A stretch of 64,000 nt of DNA from a virus (lineage: Duplodnaviria; Caudoviricetes). A program made the translations under genes and the position numbers. Positions 4,399 to 57,048 of this stretch are shown here, piece by piece. Positions within the stretch are counted from its first letter, which is position 1; every line of letters starts with the position of its first letter. The notes under the pieces were generated by a model, which did no database searches, was not told where the DNA came from, and saw only the letters and a program-made list of their open reading frames with translations. Location of the stretch: positions 21,818 through 85,817 of IMG/VR virus record IMGVR_UViG_3300031555_004271; one strand, written 5' to 3'.

Positions 4399-4407
4399 AA
4401 TTAAAGA

Positions 4408-8715: not shown

Positions 8716-8873
8716 TTTTTAAATACCTCCATTTTTTATATTGCTATTTTTAAGATATATAGTCATAACTAATTTTAAACTATGACTTAAAACAATTTTA
8801 TAATAGAGTATAATGAAAAATGTATTTTTTTTTATACTAAAGATTCTATAATGAAGAAAGGAATGTAATAAAT

Positions 8874-9926: not shown

Positions 9927-9933
9927 AAATTTA

Positions 9934-9972
9934 AAAGTAAGTATAGGCTTAATTGCCTATACTTACTTTCTT
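9934..9972. terminator. Bidirectional terminator
   Basis: aaaagtaagtataggc-ttaatt-gcctatacttactttc. Confidence 0.85.
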
Positions 9973-10781: not shown

Positions 10782-10867
10782 TTACAATCACCTACTTTCT
10801 TTATAATAAAGTGTTTAAAGTATGATTAAAAAGTCAAAAAAAAAGTGAACTATGAGTTAGTTCACTT

Positions 10868-11263: not shown

Positions 11264-11674
11264 TTAAATCCTCCTAGGTTTTATAATCTTTTCTTCATTA
11301 AAGAATCTTTCTAAAAACTCAGTGTCATCTTCTTCAAGATATTTTCTATTGATAAGTGGTAATTCTAACTGACATTGAGTGCTAAAAGCTTCTCCATAAA
11401 GTATCTGTTTCTTAAAGTCTATAAAAAATTCCATAACCAGTTTTTTACTACCATTGTTTATAAAAAGTTGTAAGTAACCATACACCTCATATATACGATC
11501 TACAAAATCAATCCAAAATGCTGGATTAAGATACCATTCATCTCCATATTCAACGATATTCCAATATAGAATCTTTTCATTATCACCATACCCTTGTATA
11601 CATTTGAAAATTTGATTGTAGTTCTTTACTTTTATATTGAATATCTGATTTTTAGTAATTATAGGAAACTTCAT
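11264..11674 (-). CDS. Hypothetical protein, paralog of 10868-11263
   Basis: Shared motifs as above; RBS gaaagga. Confidence 0.65.
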   Translation of the reverse strand: MKFPIITKNQIFNIKVKNYNQIFKCIQGYGDNEKILYWNIVEYGDEWYLNPAFWIDFVDRIYEVYGYLQLFINNGSKKLVMEFFIDFKKQILYGEAFSTQCQLELPLINRKYLEEDDTEFLERFFNEEKIIKPRRI

Positions 11675-11787
11675 TATATACATTCCTTTCATAATAGTAT
11701 TCTACATTTAGTATATATAGATAAAATAATGATAAAAATCTAAAAAAAAGAAAGTCTTAAACATAGTAAGGCTTTCTTTTTATATCT

Positions 11788-11997
11788 TTATTCCTCCTTA
11801 TTTTCCTCTTCTTTTCTGAACGTTACTTCATGTTCATAGAAAACCAAGTTAGAACCATGGGAATCTCTAACCTCAACAAGCTTTCTACCAGCACAATTTC
11901 TAGAGTATCTAATGACAACACCATCATGCCACCACAAACCACACTCGGTATAAGATACTAAGTCACCTACTTTGAACTTATTTTCTCTTTCAAGCAT
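11788..11997 (-). CDS. Small SH3/KOW-like beta-barrel protein, paralog of 12419-12613
   Basis: ENKFKVGDLV.Y...G.W..DGVV...NC.G..LV. Confidence 0.6.
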   Translation of the reverse strand: MLERENKFKVGDLVSYTECGLWWHDGVVIRYSRNCAGRKLVEVRDSHGSNLVFYEHEVTFRKEEENKEE

Positions 11998-17167: not shown

Positions 17168-17240
17168 AATCTTTTACCTCCTCTTTAAAATAACAAGAAT
17201 TATTTTAGTGTTACTATATACTTTTTATTATAAAAAATTC

Positions 17241-17663
17241 TTAAATATATACTTTACTAATAATCTTACCAGTTTTACCAACTTTTTCAAAAGTTAAAAC
17301 CATATTGTCTTTAGAATTAACTAGGTTTATAAGAACACCAATAGTATTCTTCTGTCCACCTTTATCGCTATCAATAACCTCTACTAGAATATTCCCTATT
17401 TTAGAATTAGGAATATATCTATTTATTTGATTTCTAGCTCTTTCATTTATCTCACTCAATGTAATCTTATCCATAAATTCAAATTCATAATTAGCAATTC
17501 CAATACCCATATCTGGATCATCTGGATAACTCATAGGTTGCATTATAAAAAGTCTTTGGATTAATCTTGCTAATGCTGGCAGTTCACCATATGTAGATAC
17601 TTTTCCAAAATCATCAATTGATAGAAAACATTCATTTTTCATACATTCTTCAATATTAGCCAT
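17241..17663 (-). CDS. Baseplate wedge subunit, T4 gp25-like
   Basis: LIQRLFIM.P.SYPDDPDMGIGI..Y.FE...I...RYIP pattern. Confidence 0.75.
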   Translation of the reverse strand: MANIEECMKNECFLSIDDFGKVSTYGELPALARLIQRLFIMQPMSYPDDPDMGIGIANYEFEFMDKITLSEINERARNQINRYIPNSKIGNILVEVIDSDKGGQKNTIGVLINLVNSKDNMVLTFEKVGKTGKIISKVYI

Positions 17664-17769
17664 TCTCTATAATCCCCTTTCTTATTCATTTAAAGATTGT
17701 TTGTAATTACTTGTTAAACAAATATATAAACAATAAAAAACTTGCTTTATGAAAGACGGTGAAAAAATA

Positions 17770-18597
17770 ATGGAATTTTTAAACGAAAAATTATTATCTG
17801 AAGGACTCTTTAGTAGTTCTTTACAGGAAATTTCATATACAGATGTTTTAGAACAATTCAAAAAGCTAAATAAACAATTATCTGAGGCTATTAAAAAAAC
17901 TACTGCTTGTAAATCTATTAAAACATATGAAGAGATTTATCCTAACATATTTGTTATATCCAATAAGGATTATAGAATGACAATGCAGCAGTATGTTAGT
18001 GAGACTTTCTCTATTTTTGATTTAGCTAGAGAATCTGAAATGACTGAGAATATCGTTATTAGTGAACTTAATAGTATCTTTGATGAGATTAACTATGCAT
18101 ATAAAGATGTATCTATTACATTTTTAAGAACTAATGAAGGTAGTGATACTTATAGATTCTATGCTTATTTAGATTTTAAGAAATGTCTAAAGAATATTTT
18201 AAGTTACAAGCAACCTAAAGAGCAATTATTTGCTAAAGATATGATCAAAGAGTTTAAGGATAAAAAGGATACTGTAATTACTACTATTAAAAAGCATCCT
18301 TTAGGAAAATCTTTACGATTTGATAAATCCTATGAATCTGAAATTTATAAATACCAAGCTACTTCTGGTAGTGGTATTTGCTACTGTTTACAGAGTGATA
18401 CTAATGGCTTTATAGATAAAGATTTTAGTAACTTTACACCTAAACTAAGTTCATGGTCAGTTAGTATGAATCTGGCATATGAGTTAAGTGAAACTATTTT
18501 AAAGGATACTCATATGACCTTAACTAGATTCCCTAATAGAAATGGTAGTTCTAGTTTATGGCTAATTAGTAATCCAAATATAAAAATAACATATTAA
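17770..18597 (+). CDS. Putative virion head protein with L-x-E N-terminal motifs
   Basis: MEFLNEKLLSEGLF; late promoter at 17717-17728. Confidence 0.45.
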   Translation: MEFLNEKLLSEGLFSSSLQEISYTDVLEQFKKLNKQLSEAIKKTTACKSIKTYEEIYPNIFVISNKDYRMTMQQYVSETFSIFDLARESEMTENIVISELNSIFDEINYAYKDVSITFLRTNEGSDTYRFYAYLDFKKCLKNILSYKQPKEQLFAKDMIKEFKDKKDTVITTIKKHPLGKSLRFDKSYESEIYKYQATSGSGICYCLQSDTNGFIDKDFSNFTPKLSSWSVSMNLAYELSETILKDTHMTLTRFPNRNGSSSLWLISNPNIKITY

Positions 18598-18613
18598 AAG
18601 GAGTTGAAATAAT

Positions 18614-19573
18614 ATGGCTTTTAAAATAGCAATAAGTGCTGGTCATGGTCGATATACTGCTGGTAAACGCTGTATGAAAGCTATTGACCCTAATGAAACA
18701 AGAGAATGGGTATTAAACTCTAGAATTGCTGAAAAAGTAGAAAAAATTTTAAAAGAATATTCTGATTGTGAAGTCCTACGTGTTGATGATAGAGATGGTA
18801 GTACTGACATTAGATTAATTGATCGTGCAAATGCATCTAATAATTTTGACGCAGATTTTTATTTAGCTATCCATCATAATGCTGGTATTAAAGGCAATTC
18901 TGGTGGTGGTATTATGGTATTCTCATATAAGTATGGTTCTACAGAATCTTTTGAATGGCAAAAAGAGCTATATAATGCGCTAATTAAGGAAACTGGTTTA
19001 AAAGGTGACAGAAGTAATCCAATAACTAAATCTAGTTTATATGAATGCCGTGTACCCAAAGCACCTGCAATTTTATTAGAATTAGGTTTTATGGATAGCA
19101 CTACTGATACACCTATTATCTTAACTGAAAAGTATGCAGATCAATGTGCAAAAGCTATTACTGATGTAATTATTAAAAGAGAAAAATTAACTAAAAAGAT
19201 AGTTAGTAAACCTGTTGTATCTGAACCTAAAGAAGAAATTATTATCGATAAAATAGATGAGTATTCTTTAACTGATTTTGTTAAAGACGTTCAGAAAGCA
19301 TGCGGTGCTAAAGTTGATGGTATTGCTGGTTCTGAAACTCTATCTAAAACTATCACTATTTCTGCAACGAAAAACAATAAACACGCAGTAGTTAAGGCTA
19401 TTCAAAAGAGATTAACTACTCTAGGTTATACTCAAGTAGGTACTATTGATGGCGTTGCTGGTGCTAAATTTACTACAGCAGTTAAAGCTTTCCAAAAAGA
19501 TAATAATTGCACTAAAGATGGTGAAATTACAGCCAAAATGACTACTTGGAAAAAATTATTAGGTATGAAGTAA
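18614..19573 (+). CDS. Endolysin: N-acetylmuramoyl-L-alanine amidase (Amidase_3) with C-terminal peptidoglycan-binding repeats
   Basis: ISAGHG, E, LAIHHNA and AILLELGFM zinc motifs; VDGIAG, IDGVAGAK and VKAFQ PG-binding motifs. Confidence 0.92.
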   Translation: MAFKIAISAGHGRYTAGKRCMKAIDPNETREWVLNSRIAEKVEKILKEYSDCEVLRVDDRDGSTDIRLIDRANASNNFDADFYLAIHHNAGIKGNSGGGIMVFSYKYGSTESFEWQKELYNALIKETGLKGDRSNPITKSSLYECRVPKAPAILLELGFMDSTTDTPIILTEKYADQCAKAITDVIIKREKLTKKIVSKPVVSEPKEEIIIDKIDEYSLTDFVKDVQKACGAKVDGIAGSETLSKTITISATKNNKHAVVKAIQKRLTTLGYTQVGTIDGVAGAKFTTAVKAFQKDNNCTKDGEITAKMTTWKKLLGMK

Positions 19574-19696
19574 ATTATAACAAATGAGGATATCTGAAAG
19601 GATATCCTCATTTAATTTTTCCCTAACAATTTTAATACATCTATAACAAACTATTAATAAGTCATTTATTCCAATAGAAGTAGGTGAAATTGTATA

Positions 19697-20272
19697 ATGA
19701 AACTAAATGAGAATCAAATTGAAATTCAATCAAAAACTATGTTTTTGAAAGATATAGCTTCAAATTTTTATAAAGAACTACCATTTATCGATAAGTTCAA
19801 TGCTACAGAAATGAATAAGATGAACTATGATTTACGTTTTGTCACTTTCAAAAAAATTGAAAGAATGATGAAAGTATCACAGTTCTACAATAGTCTATAT
19901 TCAGTAAGTTTGCCTAACGAAACTAAACTCCATGAAGAAAAACTTAAACATATGAGATGGTTTGTCGATAAGTACAAAGATACACTAAACTATACTGATA
20001 GAATCAAATTTACATTTACACTTATAGATCCTGATTGTAACTATTCAGATGGCGTATATGAACAGTATAGTCAACTAAATTTCCAAAAGATTCTAGAAGA
20101 TGGTAGAAAGATTATTAGATCCATTGCAGGAAACTTTAAGATTCTACATCAACACAATAACAGAACTATGGAAAAGTTTGAAATATATGATGCTCCTAAT
20201 AGTAATTTCGTATTTCGTTTATGTTACTATCCAAATAAGAAAGCTTGGATAGAAATCGAGAGTAAGGAGTGA
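19697..20272 (+). CDS. Hypothetical protein
   Basis: 191 aa ORF; late promoter at 19645-19656. Confidence 0.6.
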   Translation: MKLNENQIEIQSKTMFLKDIASNFYKELPFIDKFNATEMNKMNYDLRFVTFKKIERMMKVSQFYNSLYSVSLPNETKLHEEKLKHMRWFVDKYKDTLNYTDRIKFTFTLIDPDCNYSDGVYEQYSQLNFQKILEDGRKIIRSIAGNFKILHQHNNRTMEKFEIYDAPNSNFVFRLCYYPNKKAWIEIESKE

Positions 20273-29579: not shown

Positions 29580-31511
29580 TTAAAAACTGATAAAGGTGCT
29601 ATAATACTCTTTGTTATTATATTGCATGAGCTTAATACCTAGACTCTCTAATAGCAAATTACCAACACGAATGTTATCATCAACGATATCTTCATAGTTG
29701 ATAAATGGAATTAGTTCTTTAGGAATCTTAGTAACTGACTTTGGCATACAAATAGCAGTCATACCATAATGAGCTAAGTTTTCATCATTGAAAATTTCAC
29801 TCTGAATTGTCTCAAAGAACTCAGTTCCATAGATAGGTTCCAGATCAGTAATGTCATTGATCTTTAACTTCAATAGATTGACTTTAGCAGGTGTTTGGAT
29901 TGTGTTATTAGGATATAACTTATTCCAAATAATAGAACCTCTAGCACTAGCTACTTGATATGCATTTTTATAAGAATCGAAATCATTACACTTACCAGGA
30001 GTTAAAAATGTAATCTCACCATTCTTTAGAGAATTTCTAATCTCATCTTCAAATGCTTTAAAGATTCCTAAAATCTCAGCTATGTTAATAACTGGATCGT
30101 TTAGAATCTTTTTCTCAATCATATCTGTGAAAACTTTTCTAGTACGATTGTTAACATTTGCCTTCTTAATAGACATACCCTTCATGTCTATTTTTCTTTT
30201 GATATTACCTTCTTGTAATTCTAACTGTCCTGTGTACTGCTTCTTGTTTCGTGTAAGCATTAGTCGGGAGTAGAGGAACTCGCTCTTCATGTTGATAATT
30301 GGCTGCTTAACTTCAGTAACATTACAATTTTCTGTTAAACGATTCAATTCTTTCTGAATGAATTTTGCTAGAAATAGTATAGCTGAGTTAGGAATACTAT
30401 ACATCAACTTATCTGAATCTGGTAGATGTATAGTCTTGTGTACCCATTTCACATACGAGTCTAAAGCGATAAAGTTACTGTCAGTGTCGACTGTCAGTAT
30501 AGTACTTCTTTCCATACTAAATGCTCTTTCAGCTCTATTCCAGTACTGATAGTCATAGACTACAAACTCTTCTAATAAACTCCACAACTTATCTAGATTC
30601 TCTTTAGTTTCATCATTAATCTCATTAGGATCAATAATCTCAAATTGTAGAATATTCTCTAGATATTGCTTTACTTTTTCATTTTCTAAGAATTCATAGA
30701 TGTTGTTCTTGTAATAGACACGATTTACAGACTCTTTATCCAATCCATTAATCAATGTCTTTAAAGCAGATTTCTCTTCTTTAGTTAGTTCAACGTCCAT
30801 TATTTCATACAATTTCTCTAACAAATCTTGCTTTTTCTTTACATTTTCTTTATCTAGAACTTTTAGAATTTTCATCTCACTATTGATGTTTTCTAGACAG
30901 TTATTGATATAAATGCAAAGATCACTGAAATTATCATAATGAACATTATTACTAAGGAAAGACTCGAAAGCTAGAATGGAAGTCGTAATTATGGAGTATC
31001 CCGTGTATGTTACAGAAGCCGGAATAACAGGATTATAGAACTGACTGTTCTTCTCACCAGTAGCACCATAATAGGAGTTATTCAATAGCTTAAATGTCTT
31101 CTGCATCATTTCATAGAATGACTCTTTAGCTACATCACCTTCATTAAGTGCTGCGAACTGAGCTTTCTTAGCAACTTTTCTTTCAGACATCAACCAGCTA
31201 ACAAAGTCAGCATTTAAATTAATTGCCTTTTCATGTTGCTTGAACATAACTCCATAGCCAGTCATAATAGGTTTCTTATTCTCATAGAAATCTAAGACAT
31301 TTAATAATGTATAATCATTCTCTACATTTTCATAGTTGTTTCTAATAGTTAAATTCTTTTCATTTGAGTTAAGTTTCTGATTTTCTTCTATTTGTTTATC
31401 TATTAGTTCTTCTAAAGTTTCTCTAGGAACATCTGGTTTTAGTTTTGTTAGAGTTGCTAACATATCTCGCTTATACTTTTGTACGAAAGTACTGTTCTGA
31501 ATATCAGACAT
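29580..31511 (-). CDS. Family B DNA polymerase, polymerase-domain subunit (split gene typical of phiKZ/AR9 group)
   Basis: KLLNNSYYG, VDTDS and KKQY motifs; no exonuclease domain in this ORF. Confidence 0.88.
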   Translation of the reverse strand: MSDIQNSTFVQKYKRDMLATLTKLKPDVPRETLEELIDKQIEENQKLNSNEKNLTIRNNYENVENDYTLLNVLDFYENKKPIMTGYGVMFKQHEKAINLNADFVSWLMSERKVAKKAQFAALNEGDVAKESFYEMMQKTFKLLNNSYYGATGEKNSQFYNPVIPASVTYTGYSIITTSILAFESFLSNNVHYDNFSDLCIYINNCLENINSEMKILKVLDKENVKKKQDLLEKLYEIMDVELTKEEKSALKTLINGLDKESVNRVYYKNNIYEFLENEKVKQYLENILQFEIIDPNEINDETKENLDKLWSLLEEFVVYDYQYWNRAERAFSMERSTILTVDTDSNFIALDSYVKWVHKTIHLPDSDKLMYSIPNSAILFLAKFIQKELNRLTENCNVTEVKQPIINMKSEFLYSRLMLTRNKKQYTGQLELQEGNIKRKIDMKGMSIKKANVNNRTRKVFTDMIEKKILNDPVINIAEILGIFKAFEDEIRNSLKNGEITFLTPGKCNDFDSYKNAYQVASARGSIIWNKLYPNNTIQTPAKVNLLKLKINDITDLEPIYGTEFFETIQSEIFNDENLAHYGMTAICMPKSVTKIPKELIPFINYEDIVDDNIRVGNLLLESLGIKLMQYNNKEYYSTFISF

Positions 31512-31579
31512 TTATAAAAACCACATCCTTTCTTAGTATGTAATAGATTTTTAAATGGAACTTTTTTGGATTAGGATTT

Positions 31580-31927
31580 TTAATTTAACTTATACTCTTT
31601 TACATATTCTGGAATATCAATCATTCTACTACATAAACCAGGAAATTCACTTAAATAAGCGTTGTCAAATTTTCTTACAGCATAAGAACTATCATTCATA
31701 TCTATAGTAATATATGCTTTATTTTCCATTAATCCCTTGATATAAGGATCTTTATACATAAATACTCTATCAGGTTCATTATCACTACGCCCAAGATTAT
31801 CTAAAATTTTCAGAAGTTTAGGTGAATCTTCGTTAGTTTTGAAGTTTATAACTTTACTTGAATCTTTATTAAATACTCCCATTTCTAAGTCAAACATAAA
31901 CTTTCTTTCAATGTCTCTATTTGTCAT
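31580..31927 (-). CDS. FDL-motif array member 15
   Basis: MTNRDIERKFMFDLEMG...IPEYVKEY. Confidence 0.8.
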   Translation of the reverse strand: MTNRDIERKFMFDLEMGVFNKDSSKVINFKTNEDSPKLLKILDNLGRSDNEPDRVFMYKDPYIKGLMENKAYITIDMNDSSYAVRKFDNAYLSEFPGLCSRMIDIPEYVKEYKLN

Positions 31928-32265
31928 ATTTGATACTCCTTTATATAGTTTGGAATTCTATTCCATCTTACTAATAATAGTTCTTTATTACTTGTAAATC
32001 TTCCAGTACAATCGCCTAAACCAAATACTTTACCTACTGGATCTATCCATACATAAGCTTCACCTTTATACAACCAATTTTTTACTTTATCTATATCTTC
32101 ACGTTCATTAAGTTCTAAATACCTATTATATCCGATATTGTATAAAAGATTGTATAACTTAAAGGCTTTTTTACCTTTTCTGAAGTATATAGTATGAAAA
32201 AATAGATCAAATCTTCCCATATTCAAATCAAATAAGAATCTTCTTTCAATTTCTTCATTAGTCAT
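31924..32265 (-). CDS. FDL-motif array member 14
   Basis: MTNEEIERRFLFDLNMG...IPNYIKEY. Confidence 0.8.
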   Translation of the reverse strand: MTNEEIERRFLFDLNMGRFDLFFHTIYFRKGKKAFKLYNLLYNIGYNRYLELNEREDIDKVKNWLYKGEAYVWIDPVGKVFGLGDCTGRFTSNKELLLVRWNRIPNYIKEYQI

Positions 32266-32603
32266 AATTTACACCCCATATTCAATTTAGTGTATTCCAA
32301 TAGATAATCTGGTATCTCATTAAAGTATTTAAAAGCTGCTTCAGTACGTACACTAATATGACCAGTAGTATATGAGTTATATTCGTTTGAAAACCATATA
32401 TACGAAGTTGAATATTCATTAGGAAAATGCTTTATTGCTTCATCAGAACCATCTCTAAATCCTATATTGGTTAATAGGATAAACAGATTCTTATATTTGA
32501 GTGTGTCTCTAGTTTTGAAGAAAAACATACCAGCATCATCTGTTATAAATCTTCTCATATTCATATCAAACTTGAATTTCTTTTCAATCTGTTCATTAGT
32601 CAT
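32262..32603 (-). CDS. FDL-motif array member 13
   Basis: MTNEQIEKKFKFDMNM...IPDYLLEY. Confidence 0.8.
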   Translation of the reverse strand: MTNEQIEKKFKFDMNMRRFITDDAGMFFFKTRDTLKYKNLFILLTNIGFRDGSDEAIKHFPNEYSTSYIWFSNEYNSYTTGHISVRTEAAFKYFNEIPDYLLEYTKLNMGCKL

Positions 32604-32941
32604 AGTTGATAGTCCTTTATATATTTTGGTATTTGATTTACATTTGGATAATCACATTTATAAGTATATCTTTCAGATTTCATAAATTCCTTTTTTTCAG
32701 GAAATAAATTTACATAGAATGTTCTAGGATTTTTATTCCGTTTCCATTCTTTTAATATACCTTTCTCTAAAAGTCCTTTATAATAGTCTTTATAGCCAAT
32801 ATCTTCTAAACACTTAAGAAATTTATCATAATTAACATTTCCTTGAAAACTTATTCTAATACAATTTCTATTATCTTCTCTTTTGAATCTATCAAAATTT
32901 AAGTCAAATTCTAATCTTTTTCTAATTTCTTCATTAGTCAT
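32600..32941 (-). CDS. FDL-motif array member 12
   Basis: MTNEEIRKRLEFDLNF...IPKYIKDY. Confidence 0.8.
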   Translation of the reverse strand: MTNEEIRKRLEFDLNFDRFKREDNRNCIRISFQGNVNYDKFLKCLEDIGYKDYYKGLLEKGILKEWKRNKNPRTFYVNLFPEKKEFMKSERYTYKCDYPNVNQIPKYIKDYQL

Positions 32942-32947
32942 CTAATT

Positions 32948-33274
32948 TCACTCCTTTATAGATTCCCTTATAAAATCTGGAAATCGATTTTTAGGTGTTG
33001 ATTTACTATCAAAATATGGAGCAGATGGTACGATTCTATAGTTTCTTCTATCTAAATAGACCTTTATAGTATTACTATTTTTATATTGACCACTTACATG
33101 TCTATATCCAATTCTGTCTAAAACCTTTTTTAGTTCGATTAACATACTATATGATTCACGATGATCTAAAACAAAATACACTATTCTATGATTCTCAGTA
33201 CGCTTTACTTTATAAATTCCAAGTTCTAGTTCTAGATCGAATTTGAATCTTCTAACAACATTTTCATCAATCAT
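32948..33274 (-). CDS. FDL-motif array member 11
   Basis: MIDENVVRRFKFDLEL...FPDFIRE. Confidence 0.75.
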   Translation of the reverse strand: MIDENVVRRFKFDLELELGIYKVKRTENHRIVYFVLDHRESYSMLIELKKVLDRIGYRHVSGQYKNSNTIKVYLDRRNYRIVPSAPYFDSKSTPKNRFPDFIRESIKE

Positions 33275-33582
33275 ATTTTATACCTTTTCACATAGTCTGG
33301 TACTTTATTGTAATACCAATCAGGATTTAAATATTCGTTATTTCTTATATTGTACTTTTTATTACGAGTACTTATTGTTACAATTATCATATTTCTTGGA
33401 GATAGGTGATATTCGTTTCTTTCAAAACCTAAATTATCCAGAATACTTATTAGTCTAAATCTAGATTTATCTCTTTTTCTTTCTATAAATCTAATTACTG
33501 TTGGATAATCACCATTTATACATCTAAATACTCCCATATTCAAATCAAATAGGAAACGTTTTTCTATTTCTTCATTTGTCAT
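33271..33582 (-). CDS. FDL-motif array member 10
   Basis: MTNEEIEKRFLFDLNMG...VPDYVKRY. Confidence 0.8.
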   Translation of the reverse strand: MTNEEIEKRFLFDLNMGVFRCINGDYPTVIRFIERKRDKSRFRLISILDNLGFERNEYHLSPRNMIIVTISTRNKKYNIRNNEYLNPDWYYNKVPDYVKRYKI

Positions 33583-33597
33583 AATTCTAATACCTCT

Positions 33598-33879
33598 TTA
33601 ATAAAGCCTAAAGTCCTTTATATATTCTGGTGCTTCATAACTTCTATAAGTCTTATCTTTCATTCCATAAGTGAAAGTTCTATTTACCTTATTTATGAGA
33701 ATGTATTCTATATTTTCATAATCATGAGAATATATTGATGTATAAGAATAACCCCATAATTGTACTATTCTCATTATTCTTCTAGTAATTCTATATGGGG
33801 CATAAAATATTACTGAATCACCACTATATTTGATTTGTAAATCAAAATCAAATCTTTTCATAATTTCTGTATTAGACAT
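33598..33879 (-). CDS. FDL-motif array member 9
   Basis: MSNTEIMKRFDFDLQI...APEYIKDF. Confidence 0.8.
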   Translation of the reverse strand: MSNTEIMKRFDFDLQIKYSGDSVIFYAPYRITRRIMRIVQLWGYSYTSIYSHDYENIEYILINKVNRTFTYGMKDKTYRSYEAPEYIKDFRLY

Positions 33880-33887
33880 AACATCAC

Positions 33888-34214
33888 CTAAAAATTATCA
33901 CGTATTGAATATTCTCTAACATATTCTGGTATAGGATTTGTTACTAAACCAGATACTTTAGTGTATCTGCTATAAATGGAATATGTCTTATTTGATATTA
34001 TAATTCCAATGTATACAAAATGATTCATACTCGTTCTTGAGGCATAATTACTACGACATTCAAAACCTGCATAATTTAACAATTCACATAAAGGATTGCA
34101 TTCAAAAATACTTTTAGTTTCAAACCATATATGAAAATCATCTGAACTTAATTTTTTAAATAATCCCATTTCTAAATCGAAAAAGAATCTTTTTTCTATT
34201 TCTTTATTTGTCAT
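33888..34214 (-). CDS. FDL-motif array member 8
   Basis: MTNKEIEKRFFFDLEMG...IPEYVREY. Confidence 0.8.
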   Translation of the reverse strand: MTNKEIEKRFFFDLEMGLFKKLSSDDFHIWFETKSIFECNPLCELLNYAGFECRSNYASRTSMNHFVYIGIIISNKTYSIYSRYTKVSGLVTNPIPEYVREYSIRDNF

Positions 34215-34219
34215 ATACT

Positions 34220-34556
34220 CTAATCACTATCCTTTGTTAGAATGTACTCTGGAATTGGATTTTCATAATAGTTATATAATCTAGTATAATCATCATAGTA
34301 GCTATAAAGTTTACTAGTTGTATTTATAAGTATACCATCTCTAGCTAAGACTAAAACACTTATATCTTCATAGAAACCTATAACCAATCTGATTTAAAAA
34401 GTTTTTCATCTCTTTCATTTTAGCAAAGTTCTTATTATCAAATGGATAATCTTCCTCTTTAAATACTATAATTTTTCCATATTTAGTTTCGTGACCTTTT
34501 ATTAAACCTAATTCTATATCAAATAAGAATCTTTTTTCTAATTCTGTATTACTCAT
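34220..34556 (-). pseudogene. FDL-motif array member 7, frameshifted (or +1 recoded)
   Basis: Frame 0 stops at TGA (34368); the +1 frame continues F-YEDISVL...NPIPEYILTKDSD* to 34220. Confidence 0.7.
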
Positions 34557-34927
34557 ACATAGAATCCTCCTATAGTGTATTTCTTACAATTATGAGATAT
34601 TACATAATCTTTGATATACTCTGGTAATTCAGAAATCTCTTTACTATGAGGTAAACTACGAATGCTTATATTATCATAACATTGAAAGTATTTTTCTCCA
34701 TTATATATCTTGATAATTCTCTTAGATTTTCCATACTCATAGTATCCATAAACATTCTCATCTAAAAATGAGAATTTCTGTGAATATCCATTGAATGCAA
34801 GTATGGTTTCTATATCTGAAATGTTATCATAAAAGTCATAGAAAACTATAGAACCATCGTCATTGGTTTTAAATACTCCCATATTTAAATCAAATAAAAA
34901 TCTTCTATCTTTTTCTTCTTTAGTCAT
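34553..34927 (-). CDS. FDL-motif array member 6
   Basis: MTKEEKDRRFLFDLNMG...LPEYIKDY. Confidence 0.8.
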   Translation of the reverse strand: MTKEEKDRRFLFDLNMGVFKTNDDGSIVFYDFYDNISDIETILAFNGYSQKFSFLDENVYGYYEYGKSKRIIKIYNGEKYFQCYDNISIRSLPHSKEISELPEYIKDYVISHNCKKYTIGGFYV

Positions 34928-35271
34928 TTACTATCAACTTCTTTCTTACTTATATCGTATCGTTTTATGTAATTCGGTATGGTGTTATAATAATTTTCAT
35001 AACAATGCAATCGATCAACTATATGAAATTCTTTATTTTCAATGGATATATTTATACTGAATCTTTTATTAAAGTTTCTTAAATCTTTCCTAGTGTATTT
35101 ATATCCTTTTACAGTAACTTCCTTAAAACCATTATTTTCCAATAATCTTACTAGTCTTATGATATTTCTATCACATTTAAATGCACACAATTTATCGTAA
35201 TGACCATATGGTTTAAATATACCCATATGAAGATCGAATAAGAATTTTTTCTCTATTTTTTCACTATCCAT
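34924..35271 (-). CDS. FDL-motif array member 5
   Basis: MDSEKIEKKFLFDLHMG...IPNYIKRY. Confidence 0.8.
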   Translation of the reverse strand: MDSEKIEKKFLFDLHMGIFKPYGHYDKLCAFKCDRNIIRLVRLLENNGFKEVTVKGYKYTRKDLRNFNKRFSINISIENKEFHIVDRLHCYENYYNTIPNYIKRYDISKKEVDSK

Positions 35272-35282
35272 TTATAATACTC

Positions 35283-35624
35283 CTAAAGAGGTTTTTTCAT
35301 GTAGTAGTTATTTACATAATCTGGAATTTCATTTACTAATCCTTTTGATATATAGAATGTGTGTATTGTAACATTGTTATTAGAGTAATGGAAAGAGTAT
35401 TTTTTATCTAACCTATCAATTTCCAATATATCCTCATTACCACAGTAGTAATTGTATTCAGATTCTTTATAACCTAACTCTTTTAATATATTTGAGATCT
35501 TAAATAAGGATTCACTAGAACCCTTAAAAATCAAAAATTCCTTACCATATATTTTCTTAGTCTTAAAAATACCTACATCTAAATCAAATTGGAATTTCTT
35601 TTCTATCTGTTTATAGTCTGTCAT
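35283..35624 (-). CDS. FDL-motif array member 4
   Basis: MTDYKQIEKKFQFDLDVG...IPDYVNNY. Confidence 0.8.
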   Translation of the reverse strand: MTDYKQIEKKFQFDLDVGIFKTKKIYGKEFLIFKGSSESLFKISNILKELGYKESEYNYYCGNEDILEIDRLDKKYSFHYSNNNVTIHTFYISKGLVNEIPDYVNNYYMKKPL

Positions 35625-35968
35625 GTTTTATAATCCTTTACATAATCTGGAAGTAAGTATATAGATTTATCCATACGCACATCACTTTCATACTTTGTTG
35701 CAATAAACAATTTCAATTCATTATCTATACCAATTTTAATATATTTATAGTTGGTATATGGATAATCTACAGGTTGTCTAGTATAATAATCAGTATCATG
35801 ACCACAAAGATCTTTATAACCATTCTTTTTTAAAATAGTTATTACTATTAGTACATTCTGTATAGTATCACCAAAAGTTACATCATTACGCAAATCTTTT
35901 TGATATACAGTATTTAAATCAAATATGAATCTTTTCTCTATTCTTTCATTACTTTGTCTATCATACAT
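35621..35968 (-). CDS. FDL-motif array member 3
   Basis: SNERIEKRFIFDLN...LPDYVKDY. Confidence 0.8.
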   Translation of the reverse strand: MYDRQSNERIEKRFIFDLNTVYQKDLRNDVTFGDTIQNVLIVITILKKNGYKDLCGHDTDYYTRQPVDYPYTNYKYIKIGIDNELKLFIATKYESDVRMDKSIYLLPDYVKDYKT

Positions 35969-36288
35969 TTGTAATACTCCTTTTCATCAAATTCGTCAAT
36001 GTAATCTGGTATTTCATTAACAGTGTCATTAAAATGTCTAGCAAATATTCCATATGGTGACATTATAACATAATTTCTAGATTCCTTATAGATAGCAATT
36101 GGACTATCCCAATATATTGGAAAACCACCCTTGTATTCTAATGTGATTAGTACTTTTACAAGTTTTCTATTATCTTTTGCTCTAAAAATATAGTATCCAC
36201 CCTCATTAACATTTGTATTTATAGTAAACTTGAATAAACCCATTTCTAAATCGAATTCGAATCTTTTTAAGATTTCTTCATTAGACAT
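35938..36288 (-). CDS. FDL-motif array member 2
   Basis: MSNEEILKRFEFDLEMG...IPDYIDEF. Confidence 0.8.
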   Translation of the reverse strand: MSNEEILKRFEFDLEMGLFKFTINTNVNEGGYYIFRAKDNRKLVKVLITLEYKGGFPIYWDSPIAIYKESRNYVIMSPYGIFARHFNDTVNEIPDYIDEFDEKEYYKCMIDKVMKE

Positions 36289-36827
36289 TTTAACACATCC
36301 TTTATACAATCAAATACAGTATACTTATACTCACTTACATATTCTGGAATTTCATTAATAGAGTTTTCCTCAAATTTACCAGTTGATCCACATAAATTAA
36401 CCCAAGTATGAAATTTCTTTTCATCCTTATCTATACATAAAAATACTAATGTAATATAGTTTCTATTTTTATTATCTTTAACAAAATACTTATCATGATT
36501 AAGATTTATTTCATTTACAAAGTCTAATTCTTCTAGAATTTTTATTAACTTTAAATATAGCTTTTTATTATATGGAGGAATAGAAAATAGTATTTCTCTT
36601 GTAGGTCTATCTTCAACTTCACTAATATACATATTACCATTTGCATATGTTACAACTGTTCTACTACCATATGCAAAACTACTATTACCAAAAGTAACAG
36701 TATTAGCACTATATGCATAGCTTCCATTATGATGATTATTTAAAATAGATTTTTCTTTAATAGATTCTTTGAATCTACATACTTCTAGATCAAATTGAAA
36801 TCTTTTCAAAATTTCTTGATTAGTCAT
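36267..36827 (-). CDS. FDL-motif array member 1 (with ~60 aa insertion)
   Basis: MTNQEILKRFQFDLEV...IPEYVSEY. Confidence 0.8.
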   Translation of the reverse strand: MTNQEILKRFQFDLEVCRFKESIKEKSILNNHHNGSYAYSANTVTFGNSSFAYGSRTVVTYANGNMYISEVEDRPTREILFSIPPYNKKLYLKLIKILEELDFVNEINLNHDKYFVKDNKNRNYITLVFLCIDKDEKKFHTWVNLCGSTGKFEENSINEIPEYVSEYKYTVFDCIKDVLKCLMKKS

Positions 36828-36924
36828 TTAGTTCTCACCTCTTTTATAAAACTTTCTATCTTAAAACAATTATATATATTTGATAAACAAATTAACTCTA
36901 CAGAAAGTAGGTGACTTATAAACT

Positions 36925-41710: not shown

Positions 41711-41825
41711 AAATCTGTAATAAAGAATTTTTTAAATATATATTCTAAATTTGTATAGTACGTAAATCTTTCTATGTACTATACAGATAAAACTTTTTTA
41801 CTATTTTTAAAGGAGACTAAACACT

Positions 41826-42854: not shown

Positions 42855-42984
42855 TAATATAAAAAGGGGTATTAGATTCTTATCTAATACCCCTTTTTTC
42901 AAATTGAAATAAACAAATTTATCTATACATTTTAAAAACTAGGTGTATAGTAAAATTAATAAAATTAGGAGAGAAAAGACAAAT

Positions 42985-44265
42985 ATGAAGACTAAAATTA
43001 ATAAGAGATATATGTTCGGTATAAAAATTCTTTCTATACTGATTTTACTTCTCTTTACAACTTTCGTGATCGTATCTGTTATTAGATCAACTAATAATGT
43101 ACAAGATATTATTGTATTTGAAGAATCAAAAGAAGCTATTAGTGAAGAATCTGGTGGTTTACAATCAACTAATAAAGTTACATACGCCAATTTGATTGAA
43201 ACATCTTTTGATTCTGAGGGAAAATCTTTTAATGAAAATATTAATTATAGTCTACTAATAGAAGAGTCATTAAATGATATTCAAAATACCGATTTTAATC
43301 AGGTAAAAGAATATGAAAGATTAAATAATCTTAAGGTAGATTATATGAAATTAGATAGTCCTAAGATTGAATATTTTAAAGATTTTAATTCTTGGGAAGA
43401 ATTATTCATGAGTGATACCTTGGATGATTACTTTATTGAGAAAGATGAAAAATACATGATTGTAAATGTAACATCTTGTGTAAATTTAAGAAGTGGTCCT
43501 AGTACTTCATATGATGTAGTAGATACACTTAAGAATTATACACCTGTTACTTTCCTTGGTTTAATTGTAAGTGAGGAAAATGGAACATGGTATAAAGTTT
43601 TATCTAATGAACAAATAGGATTTATTCATGGTGATTATGTATCAATCTATGATGAATCTATCATTCAAAATTCTATTAAAACAAATTCTACAAATACAAC
43701 TACTACTTCTAAAGAAGAAAATATTCCTAAAAAGGAAGATGTTTTAGTAGAAGAAACTATTCCTCCTACAGATAATAATACAGAAGAAACACCATCGGTT
43801 GAAGAAACCATTCCTACTACTGATTCTATTGAGGATGATAATGTGACTGATGTTCCTGAAGAAACTATTCCTTCTGAAGAAACTACTCCTGAAAATAGTG
43901 ATATTGATGAAGAAGATCTTTATTGGTTATCAGTGGCAATCACTATGGAAGGCGGCTGTTCTTGGTATCCTGAGTGGTTAAGAAATTACATCGGTTGTGT
44001 TGTACTAAATCGTGTAGAATGTCCCGATCTTTATTCTGACACTATTTATGGAGTACTTCATGATCCTGGTCAATATCCTTGGGCGGGAGGATGGCATAAA
44101 GAACCTTATGAATGGTGTGTTGATACAGCTAGGGATTTGTTAAATGGTAATAGAATGTTACCTTCTGACATAATCTATCAAGCTGGTTTCAAACAGGGAA
44201 GCTACGTATATGAACAGTATTATGATGATGTATTAGGTAGTTATTTCTACTTCTGTGGTAGATAA
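42985..44265 (+). CDS. Membrane-anchored cell wall hydrolase: TM + SH3b + acidic linker + SleB-like Hydrolase_2
   Basis: N-terminal TM; VNLRSGPST...WYKV...GFIHGDYV; AITMEGG, VVLNRV, GVLHDPGQY. Confidence 0.85.
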   Translation: MKTKINKRYMFGIKILSILILLLFTTFVIVSVIRSTNNVQDIIVFEESKEAISEESGGLQSTNKVTYANLIETSFDSEGKSFNENINYSLLIEESLNDIQNTDFNQVKEYERLNNLKVDYMKLDSPKIEYFKDFNSWEELFMSDTLDDYFIEKDEKYMIVNVTSCVNLRSGPSTSYDVVDTLKNYTPVTFLGLIVSEENGTWYKVLSNEQIGFIHGDYVSIYDESIIQNSIKTNSTNTTTTSKEENIPKKEDVLVEETIPPTDNNTEETPSVEETIPTTDSIEDDNVTDVPEETIPSEETTPENSDIDEEDLYWLSVAITMEGGCSWYPEWLRNYIGCVVLNRVECPDLYSDTIYGVLHDPGQYPWAGGWHKEPYEWCVDTARDLLNGNRMLPSDIIYQAGFKQGSYVYEQYYDDVLGSYFYFCGR

Positions 44266-44366
44266 CATAGAAAGAAGATAAGGATTCATTTCCTTATCTT
44301 CTTTTTTTTTATTAAAAAAAACTAGAAATATATATTATAAAGATGAAAATTCTATAGAAATGGAGG

Positions 44367-46952
44367 TTGAATCTTTTGTATAAGATAGAAGTACTGACAT
44401 CTAGTATAGTGATTCACGACTATAAAAAAGGTAACTATATTAGCTTTAAGAATAAACTATCTGTATGGCAAAAAACAAAAGGTGGTGGAAGTTATATAAC
44501 TTGGTCGGCTTATGAAGAAGATGAAGAAAATGAAACATTACGTATTCATAAAGGTATTAAGTTAAATGAGTTAATGTACTATTTTCCTAAACACACTTTA
44601 GAATATGATACAAGTGGAAATCCTTGTAAGTACATGAAACTAAATTTAACAGTAAAACCTAGAAGTGAGATACAGGAAAAGAGTATAGAGTACCTTTTAA
44701 ACAAGAGTGAATTTTCAGAATTTAAGAATGAAACACAAAAATTCCTATGCTTGAAGCCAGGTGATGGAAAAGCACAACCAGTTAATACTGTCATTCCTAC
44801 ACCTAATGGTTTTAGACAACTTGGTGATTTAAATGTAGGTGATTATGTATTTGATAGAAATGGTAATCCTACTAAAGTTACTGGAATTTTTAGGAGAGGT
44901 AAATTAGACAATTTTAAAGTTGAGTTAAGTGATGGTCGTATAACATATTGTAATGACGACCATCTATGGACAGTTAAATACGCATCTATTGACAATAATA
45001 CTAAACAAAGAGTTATTAAAGAACGCACTATTCCGCTTAGTGAGATTATATCAAAAGGTGTACTAAATAAACAGAAAAGATATAATTTCTGGATTCCTAT
45101 GAATGGAGAAGTTGAATATCCAGAAGTAACACTTCCTGTTGATCCTTATGTTTTAGGATGTTTTATTGGAGATGGATGTCTTACTGAAAAGGCTCTAACA
45201 TTGAGTGCAAAAGATGAATTTATTACAAACAAAGTAGCTAATATATTAGATTGTAAGCCATTTAAATATCATAAATCTAATTATAGTTATAAATTTGAAA
45301 TGAAACATAAACTATTTTCAGAAGATAGTCATACTTTTTATAAATACATTAGAACTAAGGATATTTTTGAAAATAATGAATTTAATCTAGTTGGATATAA
45401 GTCTGATAACAAGTATATTCCAGAAATTTATAAAACTGCAAGTGTAGAACAACGTTATCAATTACTTCAGGGTTTATTTGATACAGATGGATATATTGCA
45501 GATAATGATAGATGTCACGTAAGATATGATACTATTTCTAAAAATTTGGCAGAAGATATAAAAGAAATTTTAACATCATTAGGTTTATCAGCTACTATTT
45601 GTGAAAATACTAGAGAAAATAGAGAAAATTATAAATGTTATGTAGTTCGTGTTAATATTCCAAATTATAAAAAAGTTAAACTTTTCTCTATGCCAAGAAA
45701 AGTAGCAATTGCTGAAAAACATAAAGATGAAATTAAAAGAAGAGATTATGATTATATAGCTATTACATCTGTCGAGAAAATGGATAATCAAGAAGAAATG
45801 CTTTGTATCAGAGTAGATAATCCAGATCATCTATACCTTACCTCAGACTATATAGTAACACATAATACGTATACAGCTATCAACTATGTAACTAAATCTG
45901 GTAGAATCCCAATTATTGTAGTTGACAATGATAAAATTTTAAATCAATGGAAAGAATCTTTTAAGAAATTTACTGATATAGAAGATGATGAATTATTTGT
46001 AATTTCTGGTAGTTCTACTATCAAGAAACTAATGAAACAGACTAATAACCCATACAAAGTATACTTAGCTAGTCATAGAACTCTAGATTCATATTGTAAT
46101 GGTAATTGGGAGCTGATAAACGACCTATTCCAAAAACTAGGTATTGGTGATAAGATTTTTGATGAAGCTCATATAGAATGGAGAAACATTTTCTACATTG
46201 ACATTAATACAGATGTAAAAAATACAATCTATCTAACAGCTACACCAGCTCGCAGTCAATATAATGAACAAGAAGTATATAGTCGTTTATTTGATGGTAT
46301 TGTTACATTTGGTTTAACTGAGTCTAGAGATGTAAAATATATCAGATATATAGAATATTTATGGAGTTCTCACCCTACAGAATTTCAAGAATTGAATATG
46401 TCTAATGCACATGGATTTGATAGTAATGCTTATAATGATTATCTATTAAAACTCAAGTATGATAGATTCTTTAAACTATTAAAGACTCTATTGAATGATC
46501 TATGGAATAAAGATCCAGATCAGAAGATTGCTATAGTTGTAAACTGTAACAATATGATAGAAAAACTATATGATGACTTTTCAAAATCCATTTTCATTAA
46601 TAGTCAAACTAAGAAAGCTAGAAAAATTAAAGTTGGTAGATTTTGCGGTTTAGTACCTAAGTCCTCTAGAGATAAAGAGTTAGATAATCAGCTAATTCTA
46701 ACAACGCTTAAAGGATTTGGTAAAGGTGTAGATGTTGATGGACTATGTATTGTTATTAATACTGTTAGTGTATCTTCATCAGTTATAATGGAGCAATTGT
46801 CAGGTAGATTAAGATATAAAGATGGTGTAAAAAAGTATTTCATACAGTTAACAGATCAAGGTTTTAAACAATGCCGAAATCATAGTAAAATTCGTAATAA
46901 ATTCATGCAAAAAGTAGCTAAAAAATCTTTTATTTTAAACGAAAAAAATTAA
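44367..46952 (+). CDS. Superfamily II helicase (UvsW-like) containing an intein
   Basis: Spliced Walker A PGDGK|T, DEAH, TAT, QLSGR. Confidence 0.88.
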   Translation: MNLLYKIEVLTSSIVIHDYKKGNYISFKNKLSVWQKTKGGGSYITWSAYEEDEENETLRIHKGIKLNELMYYFPKHTLEYDTSGNPCKYMKLNLTVKPRSEIQEKSIEYLLNKSEFSEFKNETQKFLCLKPGDGKAQPVNTVIPTPNGFRQLGDLNVGDYVFDRNGNPTKVTGIFRRGKLDNFKVELSDGRITYCNDDHLWTVKYASIDNNTKQRVIKERTIPLSEIISKGVLNKQKRYNFWIPMNGEVEYPEVTLPVDPYVLGCFIGDGCLTEKALTLSAKDEFITNKVANILDCKPFKYHKSNYSYKFEMKHKLFSEDSHTFYKYIRTKDIFENNEFNLVGYKSDNKYIPEIYKTASVEQRYQLLQGLFDTDGYIADNDRCHVRYDTISKNLAEDIKEILTSLGLSATICENTRENRENYKCYVVRVNIPNYKKVKLFSMPRKVAIAEKHKDEIKRRDYDYIAITSVEKMDNQEEMLCIRVDNPDHLYLTSDYIVTHNTYTAINYVTKSGRIPIIVVDNDKILNQWKESFKKFTDIEDDELFVISGSSTIKKLMKQTNNPYKVYLASHRTLDSYCNGNWELINDLFQKLGIGDKIFDEAHIEWRNIFYIDINTDVKNTIYLTATPARSQYNEQEVYSRLFDGIVTFGLTESRDVKYIRYIEYLWSSHPTEFQELNMSNAHGFDSNAYNDYLLKLKYDRFFKLLKTLLNDLWNKDPDQKIAIVVNCNNMIEKLYDDFSKSIFINSQTKKARKIKVGRFCGLVPKSSRDKELDNQLILTTLKGFGKGVDVDGLCIVINTVSVSSSVIMEQLSGRLRYKDGVKKYFIQLTDQGFKQCRNHSKIRNKFMQKVAKKSFILNEKN
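44772..45866 (+). mobile_element. Class 3 (Ala-start) intein, 365 aa, with LAGLIDADG endonuclease
   Basis: AQP start, block B HLW, block F MLCIRV, block G VTHN followed by +1 Thr; LGCFIGDG and LQGLFDTDG motifs. Confidence 0.9.
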
Positions 46953-51463: not shown

Positions 51464-51477
51464 AATATATATTATAA
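51464..51477 (+). promoter_or_regulatory. Early-type TATATAT-core promoter motif (representative copy)
   Basis: aatatatattataa upstream of the tryptophan-repeat array; similar copies precede many accessory genes. Confidence 0.6.
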
Positions 51478-56980: not shown

Positions 56981-57048
56981 AGAATATAAACCTCCTTATT
57001 CTATCAAAATAAGAATATATATTTATAATTCTAAGAAATTCATTTTTT

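Follow-up and report, generated by a model that had tools for sequence, protein, structure and literature searches.

Array layout and genomic neighbourhood

The window, a stretch of 64,000 nucleotides analysed as a whole, is derived from an uncultured AR9/PBS1-like jumbo phage, as indicated by its polymerase match and by synteny, and belongs to a contig that is an 86-kb fragment, 33 % complete by CheckV. The minus strand at positions 31580-36827 carries 15 head-to-tail paralogs of 93-124 aa, with one exception of 186 aa. The first-pass annotation had described 15 consecutive genes, and these were found from 36827 down to 31580, one of them broken. Gene 1 (36267..36827, 186 aa, profile E 3.5e-25) has a C-terminal tail and an insert of about 70 aa behind its N-terminal helix, and is followed by gene 2 (35938..36288, 116 aa from the ATG at 36288, overlapping gene 1 by 22 nt), gene 3 (35621..35968, 115 aa), gene 4 (35283..35624, 113 aa, with an ATGA overlap with gene 3), gene 5 (34924..35271, 115 aa) and gene 6 (34553..34927, 124 aa, with an ATGA overlap with gene 5). 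A +1 frame change divides gene 7 (34220..34556) into an N-terminal half (34368-34556, 62 aa) and a C-terminal half (34220-34387, 55 aa, +1 frame), which leaves 14 intact genes and one broken; the family profile covers only positions 1-55 of the first piece, and either pseudogenisation or an error of assembly would account for the break. The remaining members are gene 8 (33888..34214, 108 aa), gene 9 (33598..33879, 93 aa), gene 10 (33271..33582, 103 aa), gene 11 (32948..33274, 108 aa), gene 12 (32600..32941, 113 aa), gene 13 (32262..32603, 113 aa), gene 14 (31924..32265, 113 aa) and gene 15 (31580..31927, 115 aa), the last of the array.

The next gene on the minus strand encodes the catalytic subunit of a family B DNA polymerase (divDNApol, 29580..31511, PF20286, E 5e-47), the product of which is 40 % identical to the AR9/PBS1 polymerase. 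It is separated from gene 15 by a 68-nt spacer (31512..31579, minus strand), which holds a block of about 40 nt conserved in three phages; searches of it revealed neither a terminator nor a stable RNA fold. AR9 has an early promoter directly before its polymerase gene and, on the opposite side, a divergent virion gene and an RNA polymerase beta-prime gene. The same layout is repeated around the array, and gene-order comparison places the array, relative to AR9, as an insertion between an early-type promoter and the DNA polymerase gene. Tandem immunity proteins (SUKH, Imm) were considered as a candidate identity and rejected, the only match being Imm6 in one member at E 0.062 and 13.6 bits against a 25-bit cut-off. 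There was no toxin-like gene among the neighbours.

Early promoter-like element and junctions between genes

An early-type promoter had been proposed at about position 36875, and the array is indeed headed by an AR9-type early-promoter-like element (36869..36881, minus strand) that matches the AR9 early consensus AAATATATATTAT at 12 of 13 positions. The element sits within a TTATC(AAA)TATATATAATTGTTT block conserved in three phages, is carried at the array head in the related phages G001 and G003 as well, and is syntenic with the AR9 early promoter before the DNA polymerase gene. Besides the one consensus mismatch, the start nucleotide expected from AAATATATATTAT-(6N)-G is A instead of G. The AR9 early consensus has been defined experimentally and is recognised by the virion RNA polymerase, which is reportedly sensitive to single promoter changes, and the transcript on the polymerase side of AR9 is detectable 5 min after infection (PMC5312081). 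The late motif AACA-N6-T[AG] does not occur on the coding strand across the array, compared with a window average of about 0.9 per kb per strand, and no terminator was found in the array or in the stretch before the polymerase gene. Early transcription of the array, with or just before the replication genes, would probably be the work of the virion RNA polymerase that is injected, and from its placement the array should rank among the first things expressed after infection. Co-transcription of the array with the polymerase gene is uncertain, since the conserved block of about 40 nt before the latter is possibly a separate promoter. The arrangement resembles the early units of AR9 (Lavysh et al. 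2017, PMC5312081) in its gene neighbourhood and in having the AT-rich early consensus directly upstream, and differs in that AR9 has no genes between the promoter and the polymerase gene and no member of the family anywhere in its genome.

Intergenic spacing ranges from -31 to +15 nt, and seven junctions are ATGA overlaps, including those at genes 13 and 14. The sequence AAGGAG lies 7-9 nt ahead of the next ATG (8 nt in the case of gene 14), and it is supplied by the codons of a conserved C-terminal Lys-Glu/Asp-Tyr (AAGGAG or AAGGA), which serve as the Shine-Dalgarno sequence of the next gene. The motif lysine is encoded by AAG in 18 of 26 cases, compared with 155 of 730 lysines elsewhere (Fisher p = 3.8e-7); in gene 15, which has no family gene after it, the codon is AAA. 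The stop/start overlaps and embedded Shine-Dalgarno sequences fit the earlier description of the genes as mostly translationally coupled, and the genes are arranged for coupled translation. Part of the C-terminal conservation is a translational signal for the next gene, and what is new here is that one set of codons serves both a protein motif and a ribosome-binding site. This dual-use C-terminus is a clear case of operon mechanics imitating a conserved protein motif, and calls for care with inferences drawn from motifs when phage genomes are compact. The junction DNA had also been suggested to act as a repeat that drives gain, loss and shuffling of cassettes. Synonymous identity at the junctions is 1.06 times that expected and the longest exact repeat is 20 nt, so amino-acid conservation and codon bias fully explain the junction conservation and the suggestion found no support.

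Conserved motifs and predicted fold

Identity among the paralogs is down to about 25 % overall, and what they retain is the N-terminal helix, some residues of the core and a C-terminal N-x-I-P-x-Y-I-x-x-Y segment; amino-acid identity between pairs is 0.56 over the first 20 codons and 0.40 over the last 12, compared with 0.18 for the core. The three motifs named by the first-pass annotation (N-terminal, central and C-terminal) are real: in a family alignment of 166 sequences, residues M1, I6, K8, R9, F10, F12, D13, L14, F19, F32, L48, K75, N92, P95, Y97 and Y101 are each conserved in more than 80 %, and G52 and Y/F53 are strongly conserved too. The DNA encoding the N-terminal motif is present at each gene start, as had been claimed, and supplies the most over-represented 11-mers of the contig. 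With E values of 1e-20 to 1e-32 for the individual members against the family profile, the gene repeat is not due to chance. All members are hydrophilic, with pI values of 4.2-9.7, and 11 of the 33 members on the contig have a pI above 9.

The first pass had not recognised the family, and likewise no characterised family was matched in Pfam (nothing below E 0.05), PHROGs (a sole hit at E 0.0037 in one member only, with no significant family match), NCBIfam (isolated matches above E 0.005 in single members) or PDB sequences (best E 0.13). The product of gene 10 was chosen for structure modelling, and its AlphaFold model (pLDDT 87.6, pTM 0.82) consists of a helix, a strand, a helix, three strands and a short C-terminal helix, with residues 1-10 at pLDDT 98. 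Foldseek searches with the model gave a best E of 0.77 against the PDB and of 0.039 against BFVD, the latter to uncharacterised phage proteins, and VIA-align against 48,161 chains gave a best Z of 3.8 with none at or above 5, an absence of match that is no proof of a new fold. The family is previously undescribed and is predicted to comprise small soluble alpha/beta proteins. The earlier proposal of one diversified scaffold family agrees with a single confidently predicted fold having a constant helix and C-terminal segment and varied surfaces. LAGLIDADG homing endonucleases appeared only as weak structural matches (WhiA, I-DmoI and I-Tsp061I, Z 2.4-3.0) without a Pfam hit. The LAGLIDADG helix ends in a catalytic Asp or Glu with a Gly immediately after it. 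In the array family the invariant acid D13 lies four residues before G17, position 15 varies (E/N/H/D/Q), and the order of secondary-structure elements in the gene 10 model is unlike the alpha-beta-beta-alpha-beta-beta-alpha order of LAGLIDADG proteins.

The internal proteins IPI-IPIII of phage T4, encoded at hyperplastic loci, are small proteins that share a constant peptide at one terminus and differ greatly in the rest, and IPI has a role in counter-defence. The array family is similar in its constant terminus, its otherwise very different bodies and its plastic content between related phages, and it belongs to a phage family known for packaging many proteins. It might on these grounds encode virion-packaged proteins with an N-terminus that targets them to the capsid and is removed by a protease, the bodies being injected against host defences. 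This is very improbable, because the N-terminal helix is integral to the model (pLDDT 98) and contains the core residues F10, F12 and L14, and is thus no leader to be cleaved off. In addition, the C-terminus is conserved to the same degree, and the array has an early-type promoter ahead of it and a late motif neither before nor within it. There is also no sequence similarity to the T4 proteins, and T4-type internal proteins were rejected.

The genomes of AR9 and phiR1-37 contain uridine (PMC5312081), and an AR9-like phage might accordingly encode Ugi-like proteins that guard uracil-containing phage DNA by blocking the uracil-DNA glycosylases of the host or similar repair enzymes, with a diversity that covers different host enzymes. 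The size of the proteins, the order of their alpha and beta elements and their early position beside replication genes would suit such a role. Acidic DNA mimics are a poor match for the many members with a basic pI above 9, no Ugi, SAUGI or p56 chain was among the structural matches listed, and AR9 itself lacks the family; Ugi-type inhibitors were therefore set aside, and this is the least probable of the alternatives.

Copy number, divergence and proposed role

The contig holds at least 33 copies of the family, which take up about 14 % of its 86 kb, 18 of them outside the window; a third array on the same contig is possibly related to the family. Profile matches numbered 33 in this contig, 19 in G001 and 13 in G003. 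The first-pass annotation had envisaged cassette turnover, and gene content at the array site is not invariant across relatives, with 15 copies here and 9 or 13 in the related phages; the second locus has 18, 9 or 0 copies, depending on the phage. No family copies occur at the array site in phages with a polymerase at most 50 % identical. The best identity of members between phages is 26-45 %, apart from one pair at 57 % (gene 11 and a G003 member, SH-aLRT 99), and no clear one-to-one orthologues between phages were found by identity or in the tree, which is star-like with very long end branches and clusters members by locus type rather than by genome. With 33 tandem paralogs, absence from distant relatives and a copy number that differs among close ones, the array is a lineage-specific tandem expansion. 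Metagenomes contain about 200 clusters of the family at 50 % identity, whereas no match was found in cultured phages, and by these searches the family appears to be confined to uncultured AR9-like phages.

The term hypervariable core, used in the first pass, is overstated: paralog divergence is fast, and about equal to that of the fastest single-copy accessory genes nearby. Pairwise dN/dS among the paralogs is 0.3-0.8, with dS saturated, compared with 0.07-0.10 for the polymerase genes, and since dS is saturated and divergence is no faster than that of these neighbours, diversifying selection is not supported. The high ratios, the star-like tree and the frameshifted member would suit a largely neutral amplification, in which unequal crossing-over multiplied a small, once-useful gene whose copies now drift under weak constraint and have little present function. 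Such an origin is improbable, given that 14 of the 15 frames are intact although divergence has gone beyond saturation of synonymous sites, sixteen positions each remain conserved in over 80 % of the 166 sequences, the embedded ribosome-binding sites are maintained, and three phages with saturated synonymous sites between them all retain an array at this site. Selection is still acting on the array, as the intact genes and the retained motifs indicate, and the single broken member is compatible with its partial decay.

About two-thirds of the circumference of the N-terminal helix is conserved, including K8, R9 and D13. The constant parts would form the fold core, probably together with one shared interaction surface, in which K75, N92 and Y97 may join the conserved helix residues; the conserved residues may also be purely structural. 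The same conserved circumference, which includes the hydrophobic residues F12 and M16 on another face, could instead belong to interchangeable subunits of one oligomer, whose constant helix and C-terminal segment would provide the shared interface for co-assembly of the paralogs. Coupled translation, which suggests a fixed stoichiometry, would yield near-equal amounts of the subunits, and the position directly before the DNA polymerase gene would suit an early replication-associated or DNA-coating structure. This arrangement is unlikely: copy numbers of 9, 13 or 15, with one phage lacking the second array, are hard to square with a fixed complex, and the pI values of the members are widely spread (4.2-9.7).

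This tandem expansion behind an early-type promoter most likely provides a library of early accessory proteins that act on host factors and turn over by birth and death, a reading to which we assign a probability of roughly 0.5. The variable sheet and loops would give each paralog a distinct surface, and the members of the library may function in host takeover or counter-defence, each binding a different target or target variant. A more specific form, which we regard as possible and put forward tentatively, is an effector library of new fold, with a constant helix and C-terminal strap and a rapidly turning-over surface, in which each paralog neutralises a host defence or takeover target of its own.

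Lineage-specific expansions on this scale are uncommon in phages. Bacillus phage G has a lineage-specific expansion of about 35 zinc-ribbon copies, which was called 'unprecedented' (Iyer et al. 2021, PMC7824862), compared with at least 33 copies here. What the two cases share is a small protein with no assigned function that is present dozens of times in one jumbo phage and limited to one lineage. They differ in that the array family has a different, unmatched alpha/beta fold without zinc ligands, is organised in strict head-to-tail arrays with coupled translation, and has one array placed between an early-type promoter and the polymerase gene. Being unannotated, confidently foldable and without structural match, the family offers a tractable set of small proteins for screens against host factors and defence systems.

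The MGF families of African swine fever virus (ASFV) are likewise arrays of paralogs in tandem, which strains gain and lose, and are thought to act on host responses. The likeness lies in tandem arrays that differ in copy number between related viruses; the virus realm and the proteins are different, and the translationally coupled operon layout is specific to prokaryotes. If the effector-library reading is true, the arrays would be to jumbo phages what multigene families are to large eukaryotic viruses, and would yield new anti-defence proteins by the dozen.

Array anatomy and genomic setting

The array consists of 15 consecutive genes on the minus strand, from 36827 down to 31580, as determined by ORF listing and alignment. 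Fourteen of them are intact and encode proteins of 93-124 aa, except that the product of the first gene has 186 aa, with an insert of ~70 aa placed after the N-terminal helix. The coding sequence of gene 7 is broken into two partly overlapping ORFs (34368-34556 and 34220-34387) that lie in different frames, which reflects a frameshift in a pseudogene or an error of assembly. Every member has an N-terminal motif (M-T-N-E-E-I-E-K-R-F-x-F-D-L-x-M-G-x-F-K), a central motif (L-x-x-x-L-x-x-x-G-Y/F) and a C-terminal motif (N-x-I-P-x-Y-I-K-E-Y), and these features, together with the alignment, bear out the tandem array with constant termini described in the first-pass annotation. The paralogs have a mean pairwise identity of ~25%; at the amino acid level, identity is 0.56 for codons 1-20, falls to 0.18 in the core and rises to 0.40 for the final 12 codons. 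The spacing between genes is -31 to +15 nt and includes seven ATGA overlaps. A subset of metagenomic members, including P0021, P0060, P0061, P0084 and P0095, has an extra C-terminal tail (W-L-M-K-K-L-K-R-D-S-Y-L-I-like) past IPDYIKEY, and the C-terminal end of gene 1, L-K-C-L-M-K-K-S, is related to this tail.

The source contig is an 85.8 kb IMG/VR virus with a CheckV completeness of 33% and a G+C content of 25-30%. Among the flanking genes are those for a divergent family B DNA polymerase (PF20286; 29580-31511, minus strand), a fragment of a multisubunit RNA polymerase beta-prime subunit, a DHH phosphoesterase and a helicase that apparently bears an intein. This polymerase shares 40% identity with its counterparts in Bacillus phages PBS1 and AR9; identity to the enzymes of Staphylococcus, Listeria and Yersinia jumbo phages from the AR9/PBS1 group is lower. 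In AR9, which was used as the reference, an annotated early promoter lies immediately 5' of the DNA polymerase gene, and on its other side lie a virion-protein gene in divergent orientation and the genes for the beta-prime subunit of the non-virion RNA polymerase, a helicase, a DHH protein and an exonuclease. This gene order is kept on both flanks in the window, except that the 5.3-kb array separates the polymerase gene from the promoter region. The 861-aa helicase (ResIII; 44367-46952, plus strand) contains LAGLIDADG_3 and Hom_end domains in the middle of the protein and its AR9 counterpart gene is 1434 nt (~477 aa); the insert resembles an intein that contains a homing endonuclease. Between the DHH and helicase genes, at a position that is empty in AR9, a 440-aa protein (42943-44265, plus strand) combines an SH3_3 domain with a SleB-type cell-wall hydrolase domain, which hints at a Gram-positive host, possibly spore-forming.

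Transcription signals

The element AAATATATATAAT (36869-36881, minus strand) agrees at 12 of 13 positions with AAATATATATTAT-(6N)-G, the early consensus of AR9, which was established via 5'-end mapping (PMC5312081). The surrounding block, TTATC(AAA)TATATATAATTGTTT, is kept at the operon head in two further phages. The proposal that one early-type promoter heads the array was upheld at the level of sequence by this match, by synteny with AR9 and by conservation in three phages. Matches to the early consensus with one mismatch occur six times in the window, all of them falling between ORFs of 120 aa or longer and several being immediately 5' of a co-oriented gene, although this count does not differ significantly from the 3.1 expected. 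Overlapping the early-type element on the opposite strand is AACAATTATATA (36865-36876, plus strand), which fits the AR9 late consensus AACA-N6-TA and points to a divergent 145-aa gene at 36925; AR9 has early/late divergent regions of a like arrangement. The late motif was not found on the coding strand of the entire array (window mean ~0.9 per kb per strand), nor were terminator-like sites found within the array or 5' of the polymerase gene, and sigma-70-type promoters and terminators occurred at or below chance frequency. From the promoter match, the conserved block and the absence of late motifs and terminators, it is reasonable to infer that the array is transcribed early.

Two further kinds of intergenic element were observed. 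In the spacer that follows the array and precedes the polymerase gene (31512-31579, minus strand), a block of ~40 nt (AAAAAAGTTCCAT.TAAAAAT..ATTACA) is conserved in three phages, and its core, CTAAAAAT, is also present 5' of the AR9 polymerase gene. RNA folding of this spacer gave no stable structure (z = 0.34), and the block could be a second promoter, serving as the polymerase gene's own signal, or a translational operator. Near-palindromic elements of the form (A/G)AATATATATT(C/A)T, which read similarly on both strands, lie in intergenic gaps (for example at 41737-41748, 44329-44340, 51466-51477 and 57016-57027) and are probably the commonest early-promoter form of the present phage or bidirectional signals.

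Distribution and predicted fold of the family

A profile built from the window members gave 33 matches on their own contig, comprising the 15 in the window and 18 in a second array outside it (contig 3731-11826, minus strand). The second array is headed by TTTATCTATATATTC, an identical element heading the second array of the related phage G001, and is interrupted at intervals by ORFs unrelated to the family, three in all, of 124, 314 and 99 aa; the 99-aa ORF has a zinc-ribbon-like motif. A third array (contig 16351-19872; L036:4351-7872), comprising 8-10 small genes, has a related N-terminal motif, F-x-x-I-L-F-D-L-x-L-G, and lacks the C-terminal IPxY. It was not detected by an enlarged HMM of 166 sequences and is linked to the family solely by profile-profile comparison (hhalign, 41 columns, probability 59%, E 9e-5). 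Its model (pLDDT 75) has the first five elements of the family, helix-strand-helix-strand-strand, and its best structural match, the SepF C-terminal domain, had a Z of 5.0, under the stated noise level of the tool. The third array is possibly a distant branch of the family.

Within IMG/VR the family was found in three phage types, the present contig having 15 and 18 copies. The complete 320 kb genome G001, whose polymerase is 88% identical, has nine copies 5' of the polymerase gene, nine at a second locus and one elsewhere, and the complete 299 kb genome G003 (polymerase 77% identical) has 13, exclusively 5' of the polymerase gene. The content of the polymerase-side site is accordingly not invariant, with 15, 9 and 13 copies in the three phages. 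In G003 one unrelated ORF of ~165 aa (L015:5117-5610) separates the promoter element from the first family gene, so the operon head admits other cargo too. Two additional IMG/VR pattern matches were attributed to chance. The family was absent from phages with polymerases 31-50% identical, and the enlarged HMM had no match near the polymerase gene of distant relatives; in the two nearest non-carriers (46% and 50%) a different kind of gene precedes the polymerase gene, divergently in one, as in AR9. No family member was found by a profile search of AR9, by megablast of the region against cultured phages, by tblastn of three members against 50,697 deposited phage records (even at E 1) or, usably, in the ESM Atlas, and a pattern scan of 185,579 species-representative bacterial genomes gave chance matches only. 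An exhaustive profile search of 1.84 billion metagenomic cluster representatives returned 201 matches at E <=1e-3, of ~100-190 aa and all with the family termini; 39 of the best 150 were identical to proteins of the present phage, G001 or G003. Metagenomic proteins 95%, 81% and 60% identical to window members imply closer strains. A metagenome scan for the nearest relatives by polymerase gave none above 50% identity, and a locus search for the 95% identical protein found none.

The family had not been recognised in the first-pass annotation, and searches of Pfam, PHROGs, NCBIfam and PDB sequences likewise gave no significant match. An AlphaFold2 model of gene 10 (103 aa), built with a 14-sequence alignment (pLDDT 87.6, pTM 0.82), comprises a helix (3-16), a strand (29-35), a helix (40-50), three strands (54-59, 65-71 and 76-81) and a short helix (96-99). 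Foldseek against PDB and BFVD returned nothing under E 0.001, and structural alignment against 48,161 chains gave a top Z of 3.8, the typical best of the tool for unmatched models being 7-8. As modelled, the fold has no detectable structural relative, which falls short of proof of a new fold. Sixteen positions are more than 80% conserved among 166 aligned members (M1, I6, K8, R9, F10, F12, D13, L14, F19, F32, L48, K75, N92, P95, Y97 and Y101). Conserved residues span about two thirds of the circumference of the N-terminal helix (pLDDT 98), which suggests that it is buried on more than one side; the helix looks like part of the fold core, possibly with a shared interface, and not a detachable tag. 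The members are predicted to be soluble, without signal or membrane segments, and have pI values of 4.2-9.7.

Divergence of the array and its possible role

The recurring DNA at the gene junctions had been proposed to drive cassette shuffling, which was not borne out. Where residues are shared, the ratio of observed codon sharing to the codon-usage expectation is 1.06 at the N-terminus, 0.96 in the core and 1.04 at the C-terminus, and exact repeats in the array reach 20 nt at the longest. With synonymous identity at expectation and exact repeats this short, a selected recombination module is unsupported and the recurring motif follows from the conservation of the proteins in a genome rich in AT. 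The same measures gave no sign of recent gene conversion in the array. Unequal crossing-over at homologies of <=20 nt is possible; copy number has clearly changed, yet no special mechanism is indicated. Part of the conservation of the constant ends is also not at the protein level, since the codons of the C-terminal Lys-Glu/Asp-Tyr read AAGGAG or AAGGA, 7-9 nt 5' of the next start codon, the motif lysine is AAG in 18/26 cases against 155/730 elsewhere in the family (odds ratio 8.3, p = 3.8e-7) and is AAA in the last array gene, which has no family gene downstream, and ATGA overlaps force A as the first base of the second codon, consistent with the conserved Thr2.

Synonymous sites are saturated between the present phage and G001 even in the polymerase gene (dS ~1, dN/dS 0.08). 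Array members have no clear one-to-one counterparts across phages, the best identities being 26-45% and one pair reaching 57%, and nearby syntenic single-copy accessory genes are 32-38% identical. The dN/dS of the closest family pairs is 0.3-0.8 and that of the fastest single-copy neighbours 0.34-0.56, all values being at or near saturation and suited to a loose reading only. As these values and identities resemble those of the fastest single-copy neighbours, directed hypervariation of the core was not sustained. The family tree has a star-like shape, its terminal branches having a median length of 1.2 changes per site, and grouping by locus type (polymerase-side or second locus) takes 3 changes against 21 by genome, which points to two subfamilies older than the split of the three phages. 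Nine of the 13 members in the G003 array cluster as a local burst. Judged from these sequences, the evolution of the family is birth-and-death under weak constraint.

A literature search found no described equivalent of the family arrays, and the closest described phage parallel comes from Bacillus phage G, in which a zinc-ribbon protein has expanded to ~35 copies (PMC7824862). Less likely rivals for the role of the array are that its members are subunits of one oligomeric assembly, that the array is a nearly neutral amplification, that the products are internal proteins packaged in the virion or that they protect uracil DNA. We give about an even chance to the reading that the family comprises early accessory proteins acting on host components, on the grounds of its early position, its restriction to one lineage, its change in copy number, its conserved scaffold with varied surfaces and its lack of any enzyme-like match.
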